DNA of 64,000 nucleotides from Oscillospiraceae bacterium (GTDB taxonomy: Bacteria > Bacillota > Clostridia > Oscillospirales > Ruminococcaceae): contig WRKM01000005.1 of assembly GCA_009778065.1 (NCBI GenBank), positions 26,267 through 90,266 on the forward strand, in the 5' to 3' direction. The translations under genes and the position numbers were made by a program. The notes under the pieces were generated by a model. It made no database searches, was not told the origin of the DNA, and saw nothing but the letters and a program-made list of their open reading frames with translations. Position 1 is the first letter of the stretch, and each line of letters starts with the position of its first letter. Of this stretch, positions 6,670 to 46,651 are shown one piece after another.

Positions 6670-8799
6670 CTATCCACCCAAAAGTCTAAGCCTTTTTTCC
6701 TCGTCCCACTGTTTCCACGGAGAGACAACTAACCCGTCCTCGTTTATGTCAGGCTCATAAGCGTCATAAAAGTATGAGTCTATTATATTACGTACAAGGT
6801 TACGGCTGAATTCACTGTTTTCGATTATTACGGCAAAGGCGATTTCGGGGTCGTCCTCAGGATAATAACCCATAATTACCGAATTATAGGTATCGTTTAC
6901 CGCTTGCGGCGTCCCTGTCTTAACAGCCGCCTTTGAGGGCAGATAGATGAGCTGTGACGTTCCGCCGACAGGCCAGAGAAGAGAATCGCCGACAGTGACC
7001 ATACCGTCATGAACCGCAGACCAAACGTCAGGACGGTCAGCGGCATAGGTAGAAACAACCTGCGGTTCGGTTTTATAGACAAGCTCCGTAAAATCATAGT
7101 TCCATACAGAGTCCACTAAAAAAGGTTTATATCTGACGCCGTGATTAGCTATAGTCGCCGCCGCAACGGCAAGGTGCAAGGGGGTGACTAAGGTTTCAGA
7201 CTGCCCGATTGCCGCCTGAATAGTGTCGCCGTCTGAGAGCGGATGCCCCATAAGCTGTTCGTAAATTTCGGGGGTCGTCATTCTGCCGGTTAGCCCACCT
7301 GTTTCGAGTCCTAAGTTCACGCCGATACCAAGGGCGTTAGTACATTCAACGAGTGCATCAATTCCCATTCTCCTGCCTATGTCGTAGTAATATATATTAC
7401 AGGAAACCCGAAGAGCGTTAACCACGTTCATAGCCCCATGCCCGCCGCGCAGGTGACAGTGCGGCTGATAATCATCGAAGAATGTGTATGTGCCGCCGCA
7501 TGGAACAGTGGAATTACGGTTAACTATGTTGTTGTTAAGCCCTGCAACGGATGTGACAGGCTTAAATGAAGAACCCGGACGGTATAATCCCGAAGAAGCG
7601 CGGTTGAGCAGGGGGGTGAGTTCGGCGTTCAGCACGGTCTCATAATTAAGGATATAATCATTAATGTCATATGTCGGATAAGAAGCAAGACCGAGTACCC
7701 GTCCTGTTTTTACATGAATCACAGCGACCGCGCCGCCCTGACTGTTTATACCGCGCATGTTATACCTTGTGTCGCTGTAGGTTTGGTCAAGGGTGCGAAG
7801 CCAGTATATGTGATTTTGGAGCATGGTCTGTAAATCCTGTTGAAAACGGCTGTCTATAGTTAGTTTTATACTGTTTCCCGGTTTTGTTGAAACCGTTATT
7901 TCATCGGAGAGTGCGACCCCTTGAAGATTTCTTTCTATTGTACGAATACCGTTATCGCCGCGTAATATACTTTCCATAGAAAGCTCAATGCCGGTTTTCC
8001 CTATTGTATCGTTAAGACTGTAGCCCTGTTCTTTGTACTCGGTATATTCTTCTGCGGAAATACGCCCGATAGAACCGCGGGTGTGTGCCATTACGCCACT
8101 GTCTAAGTAAACACGCATGGGTTCTTCGACAATGTCTACACCCGGAAGACTTACACTGCGTTCTTTTAGCGCAACTAATGTGTCGAAGGATATATCCTCC
8201 GCTAATGTAAATCTGTTATGCTGTGAAAAGTCGCGTAATTTCATTTCATAGCGTACACCCGCTACGGCGCGTGCGGTCTCAGGCTCATAATCGGTTATTT
8301 CATAATTGTCAAATAACGCTTTTATGCAGTTTTCTACAGACGCATCAATATTTACGCCTATCCCGCGTTTAAAGTCTTCTATTTCTCCCTCGCTTACATC
8401 TAAGAATGAGAAAGGCGCGGTCATGGTGATAGGTACGCTGTCTAACCATGTTTCATTATTTTCATCAAGAATCAAAAGGGTACGCCTGATGACTTCGTTT
8501 TCGCCCCCGATAGGAAGAAAGGCTCTTTGTACAATAACCTTGTATACAATATTGTTAGTGTTAAGCAACCTGCCCTCAGAATCGACAATCTGTCCTCGCG
8601 CCGCTTGAATTGATTGGGTGGCGGTAAAGCTTCGCTCTGCCAAACCCGCATAATATGCACCGTCAACAATCTGGATTTTCATAAGTCTCGTCAAACCCAA
8701 AAACCCAAACACAATCATCACAGCTATTAAAACCGCGAAACGAAACAGGAAATTCAGCTTTTCGAGTTTTTTCTCACCGGGTAATTTAGGAAGGTTCAT
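6670..8799 (-). CDS. mrdA: Penicillin-binding protein 2 (class B, elongasome)
   Basis: N-terminal TM helix, AARGQIVD, PGSSFK (SxxK), SCN (SxN), KTG; directly after mreD. Confidence 0.88.
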   Translation of the reverse strand: MNLPKLPGEKKLEKLNFLFRFAVLIAVMIVFGFLGLTRLMKIQIVDGAYYAGLAERSFTATQSIQAARGQIVDSEGRLLNTNNIVYKVIVQRAFLPIGGENEVIRRTLLILDENNETWLDSVPITMTAPFSFLDVSEGEIEDFKRGIGVNIDASVENCIKALFDNYEITDYEPETARAVAGVRYEMKLRDFSQHNRFTLAEDISFDTLVALKERSVSLPGVDIVEEPMRVYLDSGVMAHTRGSIGRISAEEYTEYKEQGYSLNDTIGKTGIELSMESILRGDNGIRTIERNLQGVALSDEITVSTKPGNSIKLTIDSRFQQDLQTMLQNHIYWLRTLDQTYSDTRYNMRGINSQGGAVAVIHVKTGRVLGLASYPTYDINDYILNYETVLNAELTPLLNRASSGLYRPGSSFKPVTSVAGLNNNIVNRNSTVPCGGTYTFFDDYQPHCHLRGGHGAMNVVNALRVSCNIYYYDIGRRMGIDALVECTNALGIGVNLGLETGGLTGRMTTPEIYEQLMGHPLSDGDTIQAAIGQSETLVTPLHLAVAAATIANHGVRYKPFLVDSVWNYDFTELVYKTEPQVVSTYAADRPDVWSAVHDGMVTVGDSLLWPVGGTSQLIYLPSKAAVKTGTPQAVNDTYNSVIMGYYPEDDPEIAFAVIIENSEFSRNLVRNIIDSYFYDAYEPDINEDGLVVSPWKQWDEEKRLRLLGG

Positions 8800-42963: not shown

Positions 42964-42997
42964 GATGAATCCTCCTGTTGTCTTTATTTTTTTAAGT

Positions 42998-43033
42998 AAA
43001 AATGACTGCCGCACAATGAAAAAAGTGCGGCAG
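42998..43033 (-). terminator. Terminator-like hairpin just upstream of the ahpC RBS
   Basis: Minus strand CUGCCGCAC-(10 nt)-GUGCGGCAG followed by UCAUUUUU. Confidence 0.6.
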
Positions 43034-43200
43034 CCGCGAACCGCTAACGCCGTGGCATGGTACATAGAACCCGCGAAACCGCAGGGTGGGTAAAAATCGC
43101 CTGTAGGTTCACGCTCCCTTCGTCCATCGGCAAAAACGAGTTTTCGCCGACGGGAGGTCTGCAATCCGCTGACAGAGCTGAAATCCCATATTATAGGTGT
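43034..43200 (-). ncRNA. Structured RNA, 6S RNA (ssrS)-like candidate or ahpC leader
   Basis: Minus strand CCCACCCUGC...GCGGGUUC...CACGGC resembles the 3' strand of Firmicutes 6S RNA as I recall it; promoter-like elements upstream and terminator downstream; no SD-supported ORF. Confidence 0.45.
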
Positions 43201-43269
43201 TGGATTATAATAACCATACTTTAACGCACGAAGCAGTCAATAAGCTGAAAGCCGCAACCGGAGCCGCAA

Positions 43270-43584
43270 CTAAAAGCCAAACTCGTCCGCGAGTTCTTCA
43301 AAACGCGCTAAGAACATATCACCGATTTTGTCGGAAAGAGCTTCGTCATCAACAGTTGAAAGAAAATATTCGCCGTCTTCTTCAATCTCTTGTAAAACAA
43401 TGAATTCCGTTTCGGCGTCTTCGTCCTCGTCCTCTTCGTCTGCATCTTCATCATAAAGGACAAGTGCAAGGTAGTTAACATTCTCATAGGTCAGCGCGTC
43501 AACTATCTCAAATTGCTCGCCGTCAAGCTCAACTAAATCGGGTTCGTATTCCTCAAAATCAGTTTTTTCTTCAAATTCAGCCAT
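43270..43584 (-). CDS. DUF1292 domain protein (acidic)
   Basis: FEIVDALTYENVNYLAL, highly acidic, LSTVDDE. Confidence 0.85.
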   Translation of the reverse strand: MAEFEEKTDFEEYEPDLVELDGEQFEIVDALTYENVNYLALVLYDEDADEEDEDEDAETEFIVLQEIEEDGEYFLSTVDDEALSDKIGDMFLARFEELADEFGF

Positions 43585-43614
43585 GTTTGTCCCTTTCGTT
43601 ATTTTGTTATGTTA

Positions 43615-43643
43615 ATTATACAATACATTTAAGGCTTTGTCAA
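43615..43643 (-). promoter_or_regulatory. Consensus sigma70 promoter of DUF1292 gene
   Basis: Minus strand TTGACA, 17 bp, TATAAT. Confidence 0.88.
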
Positions 43644-43741
43644 TAAGAAATACTGCATTTTTCCCCAATATTTTGAAAAAAACACGTCCATAACTGTCAG
43701 AAGTTATAAATAATTCTGAAAAAAATTGTGCAATATAACTG

Positions 43742-43770
43742 TTGACAGTTGTGTATAATTATGGTAAAAT
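43742..43770 (+). promoter_or_regulatory. sigma70 promoter driving the large non-coding unit
   Basis: TTGACA (43742-43747), 17 bp, TAAAAT (43765-43770); additional TATAAT at 43754 and 43770. Confidence 0.82.
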
Positions 43771-43776
43771 ATAATC

Positions 43777-44475
43777 ACGGAAGAAATTTCAAGAAAGTTA
43801 GACCCCGAAGGCGGAAAAAGCGGTAAAGAGTAACGATGGTGAAATTACCGTAAAGCTGTGGGAAAAGCGAGTAGGGAATGGCGCCGAGGCAGGGTCGGAG
43901 CGAGCGGTTGAACGAAGCTCTTAAAGTCACAGCAGGGTAGGCTGCGAGAAAGACCAAGATACATAGTTCTATACGATTAAGAGGATTATGTAAATATGAC
44001 CGAGAAAAGGAGGCGAGTCCAATGGATGCGGAAATCAAAGTGCCGAGCGTAGGTTGCGGCTCGCGCGACGATTAAGTTACATGTGAAATCGCAGATAAGC
44101 CGGAAAGCCCAAGCGGTGGGAAGGTTTAACGGATTTAAGGTCGGTACTTTTACCGGGATTATGCTTAAACGGACACGAACGCAATTACGTCGGCGATAAG
44201 GCTATAGGTGGGTGTCCTGTGTCGAAAGCAGGATATAACCGCAGAGGGTGTAAAGAAATCCGAAGCGGAAACCGCAAATAGGCTTGAAAATTTATATACC
44301 GGCAATTTTATGACAGCGCTTATGGACTTTTGGGAATAAAGTCTTTGAAGCGAGCCGGATTAACCGCCGAGGCGTTTAAATAAAAAATGTAAAGTTTCAA
44401 GTAACCCTTCTCGGAGGAGAAGAAAAATTAATATACTAACCCGCGCAGTCAAATTTAAAACTGCGCGGGTTTCAG
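43777..44475 (+). ncRNA. Candidate large (about 700 nt) structured ncRNA of unassigned family
   Basis: Bounded by a promoter and a 12-bp hairpin, no long + strand ORF, purine-rich, many helices (see findings); the next gene has its own promoter. Confidence 0.7.
44438..44473 (+). terminator. Terminator-like hairpin closing the large RNA
   Basis: Perfect 12-bp stem AACCCGCGCAGT (44438-44449)/ACTGCGCGGGTT (44460-44471); U tail is short. Confidence 0.7.
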
Positions 44476-44552
44476 CGTTACAGAATATTTTCGGCTATAA
44501 TTTAAGTTATCGTAAAATTCTTGAAAATCAAGTTAATATTTTCAAAAAACTA

Positions 44553-44623: not shown

Positions 44624-45634
44624 GTGGGTTTTAAACTCAATCTCGGGGCATGGAATGACGTTTTCGCCGTTCCGTCGGTTGTCGTAGATAATTACATAAA
44701 ATTGGCAGGCGGAAACAATATTAAAGTCTTACTGTATTATTTAAAAAACGCGGGACGGGTTCTCTCGGTAGATGAAGTTTCACAAAAAACAGGCGTAAAC
44801 CCCGACGACATACAAGATGCCCTGCTTTTCTGGGAGCAGACGGGACTGCTGTGCTTTAATAAAAACGATATAGTTCCCGGCAATATACCGTTAAATAATG
44901 AAAATCCCTATATATCCGAGCATGAGCAAATCACCGTAAAACCGGAAAAAACAGAAACAACGCTTCGTTCTATAGCGGAAAGTCGAGTTCAACTCGAAAG
45001 AGAACCTCGATTTTGCCCTAAAGAAATAGCCCATTCTGTACGAGAAAACAAAGGCATGGACTTTCTTTTCAAGGGTTGCGAGAAAATTTTCGGCAGAACC
45101 CTCAAGCATAATGAGCAAAATTCACTCATGCTTATTACCGAGGAGACGGGAATTCCGGCAGAATGTACGCTTATGCTTGTTGACTATTGCTTTTCCATAG
45201 GGAAGCCGACCCCTGCCTACATGAAAGCGATAGCGGTAGATTGGCTCGAACGCGGGATAATGACTATGAGTGCGGTAGAGGACGAAATAAAAGTATTAAG
45301 AGAAATAAACAGCCTTGAAAACAGGTTAAAAAGGCTTTTCGAGATGAATAGCGCGTTTTCAAAAACACAAAAGGATTTCATAAAAAAGTGGAGCAACTTG
45401 GGTTATGGTGAAGAAATGCTCTCGGAAGCATACCAAATTACGCTCGACCAAACGGGTAAAGCGGCCTTTCCGTATATGAATAAAATTATAACCAAATGGA
45501 GCGAGAACGGCATAAAAACTAAAGAACAGCTCGAAAAATCACAAAAAGCCTACAATGAAAAGAATCAAAGCGCATCCGAAGCAAAATCATCTTTTGATTT
45601 GAATTTAATATCGAAGCTGATTAATGAGAAATAG
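44624..45634 (+). CDS. DnaD/DnaB_2 domain replication protein
   Basis: N-terminal FAVP..VVDNYIK, two DnaD-like repeats (YM.AIA.DW, FPYMNKIITKW). Confidence 0.88.
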   Translation: MGFKLNLGAWNDVFAVPSVVVDNYIKLAGGNNIKVLLYYLKNAGRVLSVDEVSQKTGVNPDDIQDALLFWEQTGLLCFNKNDIVPGNIPLNNENPYISEHEQITVKPEKTETTLRSIAESRVQLEREPRFCPKEIAHSVRENKGMDFLFKGCEKIFGRTLKHNEQNSLMLITEETGIPAECTLMLVDYCFSIGKPTPAYMKAIAVDWLERGIMTMSAVEDEIKVLREINSLENRLKRLFEMNSAFSKTQKDFIKKWSNLGYGEEMLSEAYQITLDQTGKAAFPYMNKIITKWSENGIKTKEQLEKSQKAYNEKNQSASEAKSSFDLNLISKLINEK

Positions 45635-45649
45635 GCGGTATGTAAAAGT

Positions 45650-46651
45650 ATGTATAACCAACCTAATCAAAGCTTTTACGAGTGTGCGGAGGCTGAAATA
45701 AAACGCCGCCGCGAAGTAAATACCGAAAAGCTGAATCTACGTAAACGAGAAATAGAAAAAATAATCCCCGAATACAAAGCGATTCGTCTCGAACTCATGA
45801 AAACGGGAGAGAGGCTTTACAGGATTATAATGTCTGCGGAAGATGCTGCAAAAAAGCTCGCAAGGCTTGAACGCGAAAACATAACAGCACAAGAGGCGAT
45901 TAAAGTATTACTCGTCGGAAACAAATACGCCCCTGACTACTTAGACGAGATTTATACCTGCCAAAAGTGCCGAGACACCGGGGTTTATCAAAATCGTCGT
46001 TGCTATTGCTTTAAAGAAATTGTAAAAAGACTTGCGGCTGACGAGCTTAATGCCTCTGCGCCGATAAAACTCAGTAGCTTTGAGACATTCGACATAAATC
46101 TGTACCCCGACCGTACCGATACCGATACGGGTATTAACATAAAAAATAAAATGATGCGAAACTTTAAGACATGCAAGGATTTTGCCGATAATTTTCATTT
46201 ACCGTGTACGGGTATCCTTATGTTCGGGAAAACGGGGCTTGGCAAGACGCATCTTTCTCTCGCCGTTGCAAAAACCGTGATTTTAAAGAATCACAGCGTT
46301 ATTTACGGCTCCGCACCCGACTTGCTCCGTAAAATTGAAAAGGAGCATTTCAGCCGCACGGCAGGCGACGACCGCTCAGATACGGCGGGACTGCTTCAAG
46401 AAGCGGATTTATTGATTTTTGACGACCTCGGTGCGGAATTTGAGAGCAGGTTCTATGTTTCTGCTTTCTACAATTTACTGAACTCTCGTATTAACGCCGG
46501 TTTACCGCTTATAATAAACACGAACCTGACAGAAAAAGAGTTGAAAGAACGCTACGGAGACCGTATTATGTCACGGCTTCTTACAATGGAGTGTTTAAAA
46601 TTTATAGGCGACGACATAAGAGTCGGTAAAAAATACGGAATCAGTGTGTAA
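45650..46651 (+). CDS. DnaC/DnaI-like helicase loader ATPase
   Basis: Zn motif CQKC.DTG...RCYC, Walker A GKTGLGKT, Walker B LLIFDDLG. Confidence 0.9.
   Translation: MYNQPNQSFYECAEAEIKRRREVNTEKLNLRKREIEKIIPEYKAIRLELMKTGERLYRIIMSAEDAAKKLARLERENITAQEAIKVLLVGNKYAPDYLDEIYTCQKCRDTGVYQNRRCYCFKEIVKRLAADELNASAPIKLSSFETFDINLYPDRTDTDTGINIKNKMMRNFKTCKDFADNFHLPCTGILMFGKTGLGKTHLSLAVAKTVILKNHSVIYGSAPDLLRKIEKEHFSRTAGDDRSDTAGLLQEADLLIFDDLGAEFESRFYVSAFYNLLNSRINAGLPLIINTNLTEKELKERYGDRIMSRLLTMECLKFIGDDIRVGKKYGISV

Follow-up and report, generated by a model that had tools for sequence, protein, structure and literature searches.

What kind of gene lies behind a near-consensus promoter, holds no long open reading frame (ORF) over some 700 nucleotides (nt) and ends at a G+C-rich hairpin in the chromosome of an Oscillospiraceae bacterium? 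The question is raised by a stretch of 64,000 nt from contig WRKM01000005.1 (here called the window; all positions are counted from its first letter), in which the unit is flanked by a divergent DUF1292 gene and by a dnaD-like gene. A previous reading of the DNA letters (the sequence-only reading) saw here a stand-alone large structured RNA, possibly undescribed, and named as observations that would speak against it the lack of a discrete transcript, the lack of homologues or of significant covariation, and a match to an existing Rfam family; none of these was found. Positions 43777-44474 of the + strand very probably encode a stand-alone structured non-coding RNA (ncRNA) of a new family, because the unit has its own promoter and terminator, a fold that covaries among homologues, a high abundance as RNA, and no match to a known family.

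Bounds and abundance of the transcript

The promoter (43742-43770, + strand) had been described as a consensus one firing into about 700 nt; a near-consensus promoter at this place is borne out. It is of the sigma-70 type and reaches a score of 11/12, with TTGACA at 43742-43747, a 17-nt spacer, a TG at 43762-43763, two bases 5' of the -10 box, and TAAAAT at 43765-43770. The -35 box and a -10 region of the form TATGGTAanAT are kept in the homologues aligned across the promoter, and all 11 homologues have a conserved promoter. A contig of the metatranscriptome X2 has its first base exactly at 43777, 7 nt past the -10 box, and the start ACGG... is kept among homologues together with the promoter and the terminator. 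From this contig start and from an alignment of 11 sequences, the RNA gene, composed of start, body and terminator, is placed at 43777-44474 (+); nhmmer finds it in a single copy in the window, at 43777-44482.

The claim that the + strand of the unit carries no long ORF holds as well: the longest ORF within 43777-44475 has 43 codons' worth of amino acids, and no long ORF is conserved. The stretch is strongly purine-rich: over approximately 43777-44475 the GC skew is near +0.35 and the AT skew near +0.3. At its 3' end the G+C-rich hairpin at 44438-44471, which had been taken for the end of the unit, is present with 11-12 bp and a loop of 10-12 nt and is followed by UUU, so that the intrinsic terminator with its short U run spans 44438-44474 (+). 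This helix (helix 15 of the consensus fold) is paired in 100% of cells, includes three compensatory pairs and is kept in 11 of 11 homologues. A terminator scanner missed it because its loop exceeds 8 nt and its T run is short. The RNA may end at its terminator (44471), or processing may place its 3' end near 44402-44422.

In the annotation of the Joint Genome Institute (JGI) a 579-nt 'gene' is recorded over the RNA at 43761-44339 (+; L001 2246-2824), with a recorded product of 21 residues. We considered it as a possible tmRNA-type entry and rejected this. The record corresponds to ATG at 43761 followed by 21 codons and TAA; gene calling was misled here by the purine-rich sequence of the RNA, and the product is an artefact, neither a protein nor a tmRNA tag.

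A discrete transcript had been proposed as a check, and public metatranscriptomes, used as assembled contigs without strand information, point to one. Two termite-gut metatranscriptomes containing the same strain as the window have contigs over 43777-44402, and in the surrounding 3-kb stretch they have one other contig only, short and of low depth, in the ahpC leader (43152-43237). Four other metatranscriptomes (X4-X7) have 23-86 contigs per run on the same 3-kb stretch at an identity of at least 85%, many of which are diverged family members on conserved blocks. The maximal word depth on the RNA is 17,163 in X4, 3,381 in X7, 2,947 in X6 and 608 in X5; the flanks of these four runs reach at most 253 anywhere and about 0 on dnaD. 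In one run of 395 Mb, unitigs of the conserved core have a depth of 7,500-8,000. DNA metagenomes, used as a control, cover a homologous locus evenly at about 20x, gene and flanks alike, and therefore the excess reflects RNA abundance and not copy number. The RNA ranks with the most abundant transcripts of the termite-gut RNA samples, at a level far above that of the neighbouring genes.

A conserved fold in a termite-gut family

Eleven distinct homologous sequences of 470-838 nt were collected, all from metagenome-assembled genomes (MAGs) or metagenomes of termite-gut Oscillospiraceae. Relatives of the neighbouring DnaD at 55-73% identity are termite-gut Oscillospiraceae proteins too, and their contigs share the order DUF1292 (on the - strand), a gap of 0.7-1.6 kb, dnaD, dnaC-like and speD, while the genes outside this block differ. 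No related loci were found through DnaD among genome contigs, and the more distant dnaD homologues (at most 46% identity) were not found to have a large upstream intergenic region, so that synteny could not widen the family. Exact patterns were also scanned for. With the most conserved 3' block, three further MAGs were gained, each representing a species and each from termite-gut Oscillospiraceae; genome contigs gave four termite Oscillospiraceae MAGs and two chance matches; metagenome contigs gave only loci already known. MAGs that carry the RNA include WRCY01, JAITFZ01, WQYC01 and JAITFV01. These patterns are too strict, as the true members L060, L061 and L063 differ within the 3' pattern and fail, and the scans undercount the family. 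Queries of a 31-mer index of public runs, made with the entire RNA, with its conserved 3' block and with the core, returned termite-gut samples only. At the nucleotide level the core of the homologues shares 69-77% identity with the window and their 3' blocks share 84-93%; the neighbouring essential dnaD gene has 63-69%.

The consensus fold was computed with RNAalifold on the 11-sequence alignment, and pairs were counted on the same alignment against 500 shuffles and against controls in which the partner strand was slid. It comprises 102 pairs in 15 helices, with 96% of cells paired. Changes on both sides are seen at 23 pairs, compared with 6.2±2.0 in the shuffles, none of which (0/500) reached 23; the slid-partner controls left 22.6-41.8% of cells paired, with 0-8 double-change pairs. 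The homologues and the covariation that had been asked of a genuine structured RNA are thus both present. The minimum free energy (MFE) has a z-score of -4.3, but folding energy alone does not discriminate, because the reverse complement scores -4.1; covariation does. Moreover, the RNA is fixed to the + strand by invariant G-U pairs, since these would be A-C mismatches on the opposite strand: such pairs are found at 44017/44027, and others lie in 44082-44139 and 44285-44399.

The 5' domain (43781-43999, +) is dispensable, being wholly missing in L061, the 470-nt minimal form. It contains a hairpin at 43821-43850 around an invariant UAACGAUGGUGAAA, a helix 43905-43909/43940-43944 that covaries, its pairs 43906-43909/43940-43943 alternating among GC, AU and GU, and a covarying hairpin at 43960-43992. 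CGG at 43778-43780 pairs with CCG at 44000-44002, both invariant, and has an alternative partner at 43884-43886. Of the helices proposed by eye in this domain, UGGU/ACCG (43837-43850) is paired in 97.5% of cells, but it competes with the covarying CGGUAA/UUACCG at 43821-43850; GCAG/CUGC (43932-43945), though present in the window, is not conserved, with only 44% of cells paired. A strain variant that co-occurs in run X1 has the G-U pair 43966/43986 changed to A-C (G>A together with T>C) and the U-G pair 43968/43984 changed to U-A. The replacement of G-U by A-C is an isosteric wobble exchange sometimes met in structured RNAs.

Next follows a universally conserved core of about 180 nt (44000-44182, +), defined by alignment, fold and pair counts. 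It is closed by GCG 44013-44015 with CGC 44180-44182 and contains the invariant GCGAGUCCAAUGGAUG and an invariant GUCC/GGAU at 44017-44027. Its other elements are a hairpin at 44040-44068, a helix of UAAGU 44073-44077 with GCUUA 44163-44167 (100% paired), a long hairpin at 44082-44139 (helix 9), in which seven pairs have compensatory changes, and a hairpin at 44141-44156. GCUUA had been assigned to a UAAGC at 44096; its real partner is 44073-44077.

Between the core and the 3' part lies a lineage-variable insertion (44183-44282, +), which ranges from 0 to about 110 nt in homologues and in the window has a hairpin with an 8-nt loop, GUAAAGAA, at 44250-44257. The helices that had been proposed in 44183-44282 and inside 44304-44353 fall in such lineage-variable insertions. 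The same octaloop, closed by U-A or C-G, occurs in 12 instances in 8 of the 11 RNAs, on different peripheral hairpins: the one in the window and 11 more in L002, L004, L006, L049, L050, L060 and L061. It is not known from other RNAs. Such a distribution is what a swappable tertiary-contact module would be expected to show, and the loop may be a new tertiary-contact motif. L060 has, in addition, extra arms.

The 3' part forms a three-way junction (44283-44401, +; from alignment, fold and pair counts). Its near-invariant A/U-rich helix 44285-44297/44387-44399 is paired in 95.5% of cells; an invariant block GCGUUUAAAUAAAAAAUGUAAAGUUUCAAG, an arm of variable length closed by CCGGC/GCCGG (44299-44303/44354-44358) and a hairpin at 44360-44379 complete it. 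A long-range closing helix had been suggested between 43784-43793 and 44283-44293. It does not hold: it is paired in 80% of cells, its distal half fails and its 5' strand varies without compensation, and 44285-44297 pairs better with 44387-44399. Four other helices seen by eye, at 43960-43992, CGAGC/GCUCG 44044-44063, UCGGUA/UACCGG 44141-44156 and CCGGC/GCCGG 44299-44358, are conserved or covarying. The diverged contigs in the RNA samples have in common only the two 3' junction blocks, and the arm between them measures 90 nt versus 69 nt. Downstream of the junction, a variable tail hairpin (44407-44422) is followed by a conserved A/U-rich tract, AAAAAUUAAUAUA, up to 44437 (+).

Known families and alternative explanations

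Searches for known families gave no assignment, as the sequence-only reading had anticipated. With cmscan against Rfam 15 (4227 families), the whole window and ten homologous loci matched no family at gathering score, apart from an unrelated tRNA in L002. When filters were made permissive and matches up to E<=10 admitted, chance or terminator-type matches were all that came up for the window RNA and for the smallest (L061) and largest (L060) homologues, with none to RNase P, tmRNA, 6S, SRP, OLE, ROOL or GOLLD. Rfam contains no riboswitch or T-box match in the window, and neither Rfam nor ARAGORN finds a tmRNA in it. For group II introns there was nothing at gathering score and no reverse transcriptase (RT) ORF, the sole match being a chance-level one (E=9.2) to D1-D4-3 in L060. 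The hallmarks of tmRNA, RNase P, SRP, T-box and group II intron, which had not been seen by eye, are therefore also not found by search. Distant-setting blastn against INPHARED phages and PLSDB plasmids had no match; exact patterns A and C had chance matches in IMG/VR viral contigs and the core pattern B had none. A literature search found no description of this RNA or of DUF1292-linked RNAs. At the family level the family is new, with no match in Rfam or the literature, and its general character is that of the orphan large ornate RNAs.

Several of these provide a comparison. OLE RNA (RF01071) has about 600 nt, occurs in Bacillota anaerobes and extremophiles and forms a ribonucleoprotein (RNP) with OapA/B/C (PMC12054373, PMC12286853). 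The two share their size class, a Bacillota host, a multi-domain ornate fold, very high expression, a non-coding nature and an unknown biochemical function. However, the window RNA has no match to the OLE model in Rfam, whether at gathering score or at E<=10; it is transcribed as a unit of its own, from its own promoter to its own terminator, and its distribution is so far confined to one termite-gut lineage. OLE has an oapA or isoprenoid-operon context, whereas the neighbours here are DUF1292, ahpC/ahpF, dnaD, dnaC-like and speD, so that the context is, as had been stated, not of the OLE type.

ROOL RNA (RF03087) has a mean length of 581 nt and lies typically near tRNAs, often in prophages (PMC5737381), and it forms RNA-only nanocages (PMC12286853). 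Like the window RNA it is large and ornate, comes from Clostridia-type bacteria of the gut or rumen, has several multistem junctions and peripheral arms that vary, and is of unknown function. The window RNA differs in lacking a match to the ROOL model, a tRNA in 64 kb and any phage match, and in its long invariant blocks, whereas ROOL has few highly conserved nucleotides. GOLLD RNA, of about 800 nt, is associated with phages and tRNAs and forms a 14-mer nanocage (PMC12286853); it resembles the window RNA in its ornate fold and overlaps in size with the largest homologue (838 nt), but the window RNA does not match its model, is associated with neither phages nor tRNAs and belongs to a different host group. 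The raiA motif RNA, of about 200 nt, is found in Firmicutes and Actinobacteria and approaches rRNA and tRNA in abundance in C. difficile (PMC12968392). It is likewise a stand-alone, extremely abundant structured RNA of Clostridia with an unknown function, but it is much smaller and widespread (>2700 species), and the window RNA does not match its model.

Several points weigh against the reading of the unit as a stand-alone ncRNA acting through its fold. Its strand, exact 3' end and transcript size are derived from the orientation of promoter and terminator, the G-U pairs and one contig end, and the depths on conserved blocks are sums over many family variants. Some helices are invariant and hence give no covariation signal. 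Synteny is weak evidence, because the 11 sequences all come from one narrow clade; the narrow distribution itself is established for near-identical sequence only, and the known range is a lower bound that may in part be an artefact of the strict patterns. A scaffold or assembly mechanism is argued solely by analogy with OLE, ROOL and GOLLD. Finally, a Shine-Dalgarno-like GGAGG lies 8 nt 5' of an AUG inside the core; this AUG is invariant, and the GGAGG-like purine tract stands 7-9 nt before it.

That AUG opens a small ORF (sORF) of 17 codons, MDAEIKVPSVGCGSRDD (44022-44075, +), which we list as part of a rival reading only: a dual-function RNA or small mRNA would express the 17-residue peptide, and the structure would control translation or stability. 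The model for such a case is S. aureus RNAIII, a dual-function RNA of 514 nt that encodes delta-haemolysin (hld). RNAIII and the window RNA are alike as abundant RNAs of about 0.5 kb with many hairpins and a short ORF preceded by a Shine-Dalgarno sequence. The sORF is kept in 10 of 11 homologues, with 17 codons in nine of the 11 and 20 codons in the other two; its stop is kept through a change between TAA and TGA, codon 4 is always GAN (E or D), and its variable positions show a mild third-position excess (10 third versus 5 first and 7 second). However, the stretch has three indels (two in L050, one in L004), each of them 1 nt long, and the L050 peptide is frameshifted after residue 10 while the RNA hairpin is still kept. 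The 9 nt between the Shine-Dalgarno-like tract and the AUG, together with most of the sORF, are invariant or covary as helix 44040-44068, which indicates a constraint at the RNA level. About 90% of the conserved RNA lies outside the sORF, and the peptide is too short for a homologue search. In contrast to RNAIII, the ORF here tolerates frameshifting indels, structure dominates conservation and no quorum-sensing locus adjoins. We consider a coding function of this kind unlikely.

Still less probable, in our judgement, is a long 5' leader or cis-regulator of the dnaD-dnaC-speD operon, in which transcription would normally stop at 44471 with signal-dependent read-through, and what accumulates as abundant RNA would be a stable leader left by termination or processing. 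The RNA does lie directly upstream of dnaD, on the same strand and in synteny in 11 of 11 loci, and the distance between the terminator and the dnaD start shrinks to about 45 nt in several homologues. But in the window dnaD has a separate promoter after the terminator, and in five homologues (L006, L009, L049, L061 and L063) that promoter is nested inside the terminator, with the -35 sequence TTGACT in the hairpin loop, a 17-nt spacer and a -10 box (TGnTATAAT or TATACT) after the U run (L006 2411-2465). With a dnaD promoter placed inside its terminator, the RNA is not simply a leader, and the independence from dnaD that had been proposed is upheld; where the nesting occurs, RNA termination and dnaD initiation may be coupled. 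Moreover, no known attenuator comes anywhere near the RNA in length (470-840 nt) or in its three domains and variable ornate arms, no contig in the metatranscriptome assemblies joins the RNA to dnaD, whose depth is about 0 against hundreds to thousands on the RNA, and the more distant dnaD homologues have no such upstream region.

A diverged or rearranged housekeeping RNA (RNase P RNA, tmRNA, 6S or SRP RNA), or an OLE, ROOL or GOLLD RNA too far from its Rfam model, we hold to be highly improbable. The abundance of the RNA is on the order expected for housekeeping RNAs, and the short strings GAGUCC, GGUGAAA, AGCAAGG and GCUUA resemble conserved regions of RNase P. The P4 helix of RNase P is formed by CR-I (GAGGAAAGUCC) and CR-V (..GGCUUA). 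However, the strings are in the wrong order, two of them sit in the 5' domain that L061 lacks, and GCUUA at 44163-44167 pairs with 44073-44077 in all sequences (100%), which is not P4-like; to this are added the empty searches at E<=10 in three homologues and with ARAGORN. Least credible of all is that the RNA belongs to a prophage or a mobile element, whether as a guide or omega-type RNA or, as with many copies of ROOL and GOLLD, as an ornate RNA carried by a phage. In favour of this reading the JGI label 'DnaD/phage-associated family protein' on neighbouring DnaD homologues, a BRO-N domain gene 3 kb downstream and the many variant copies in community RNA could be cited, but it is opposed by one copy per locus and per 64-kb window at single-copy DNA depth, by a chromosomal housekeeping context (ahpCF, dnaD/dnaC, polyamine synthesis) with no transposase, integrase, RT or nuclease gene adjoining the RNA, and by the absence of tRNA genes from the window (ARAGORN) and of true matches in IMG/VR, INPHARED and PLSDB.

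Neighbourhood, proposed function and significance

The setting of the RNA is chromosomal. To its left lies the divergent DUF1292 gene (43270-43584) with a consensus promoter at 43615-43643 (together 43270-43643, - strand), syntenic in all homologue loci whose flanks were read, and further left ahpC/ahpF. On the right, the dnaD-like gene with a DnaB_2 domain (44624-45634) and a dnaC/dnaI-like ATPase gene (45650-46651; the pair at 44624-46651, +) have their own promoter and keep their place in every homologue locus read; beyond them come speD and a cluster for polyamine synthesis. The acidic DUF1292 protein is encoded by the only consistently linked non-replication gene and is an obvious candidate for a partner. 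Between the two divergent promoters, about 60-70 nt 5' of the RNA start, all aligned homologues have a conserved element in an intergenic alignment block, TATAAATAAT at 43705-43714 (+) in the window and (A/T)ATAAACAAT in homologues, with the general form (A/T)ATAAA(T/C)AAT; it might serve as an UP element or as a site for a regulator, possibly a shared one.

Some other features of the region were recorded. An origin of replication (oriC) near the RNA was considered and rejected: DnaA boxes are not enriched in the window (20 versus 13.6±4 expected), only one is near the RNA and there is no cluster. On the - strand, the approximately 290 nt between the DUF1292 stop and the ahpC start (42979-43269) are G+C-rich (up to 54%), with several terminator-like hairpins (43027-43085), contigs at depth 150-250 in one metatranscriptome and no Rfam match; either a small RNA or a structured leader of ahpC may lie here. 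The BRO-N domain gene (phage antirepressor-type; 47437-48282, +) separates speD from the polyamine cluster's arginine/ornithine decarboxylase gene, and the homologous loci read have other genes at its position. In L060, about 500 extra nt between the RNA terminator and dnaD (1990-2500) contain long G+C-rich inverted repeats (GGGGCGTGATGTCCCCCGCC... / AAGCGGGGGATATGCCCCCGCTT...) and look like an inserted repeat element.

As for function, the RNA probably acts neither by base-pairing with mRNAs, nor as a leader, nor as an mRNA. It would instead work in trans through its fold, by scaffolding proteins in an RNP or by forming an RNA-only assembly, the mode proposed for OLE, ROOL and GOLLD (PMC12286853, PMC12054373, PMC5737381). 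A compact trans-acting fold is suggested by the invariant junction strands, the covarying helices, the expendable variable arms with their recurring loop and the housekeeping-level abundance. The GUAAAGAA loops would then be interchangeable modules for tertiary or intermolecular docking, and the invariant junction strands would form a functional or binding site. By analogy with those RNAs a scaffold or assembly is possible, although we regard this mechanism as less likely than not.

A wider proposal, to which we give slightly less than an even chance, is that the family founds a new class of bacterial RNAs, large (0.47-0.84 kb) and ornate, unrelated to OLE, ROOL, GOLLD or RNase P and among the most abundant non-ribosomal transcripts of the termite hindgut, with its own GUAAAGAA tertiary module and a new biochemical function that only fibre-degrading Oscillospiraceae would have, be it catalysis or an assembly, RNA-only or as an RNP. 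To our knowledge, only a handful of bacterial ncRNAs longer than 400 nt exist outside rRNA, RNase P, tmRNA and self-splicing introns. OLE, GOLLD and ROOL each brought unexpected biology or architecture, such as membrane RNPs and RNA-only nanocages. If the proposal is true, a further unrelated class would offer structural biologists a new natural fold, with covariation, invariant junction strands, a modular loop and an expression that rivals housekeeping RNAs. It would also draw attention to a major component of termite-gut metatranscriptomes that lacks annotation, and mean that a key lignocellulose-degrading gut lineage carries an unexplained, highly expressed gene.

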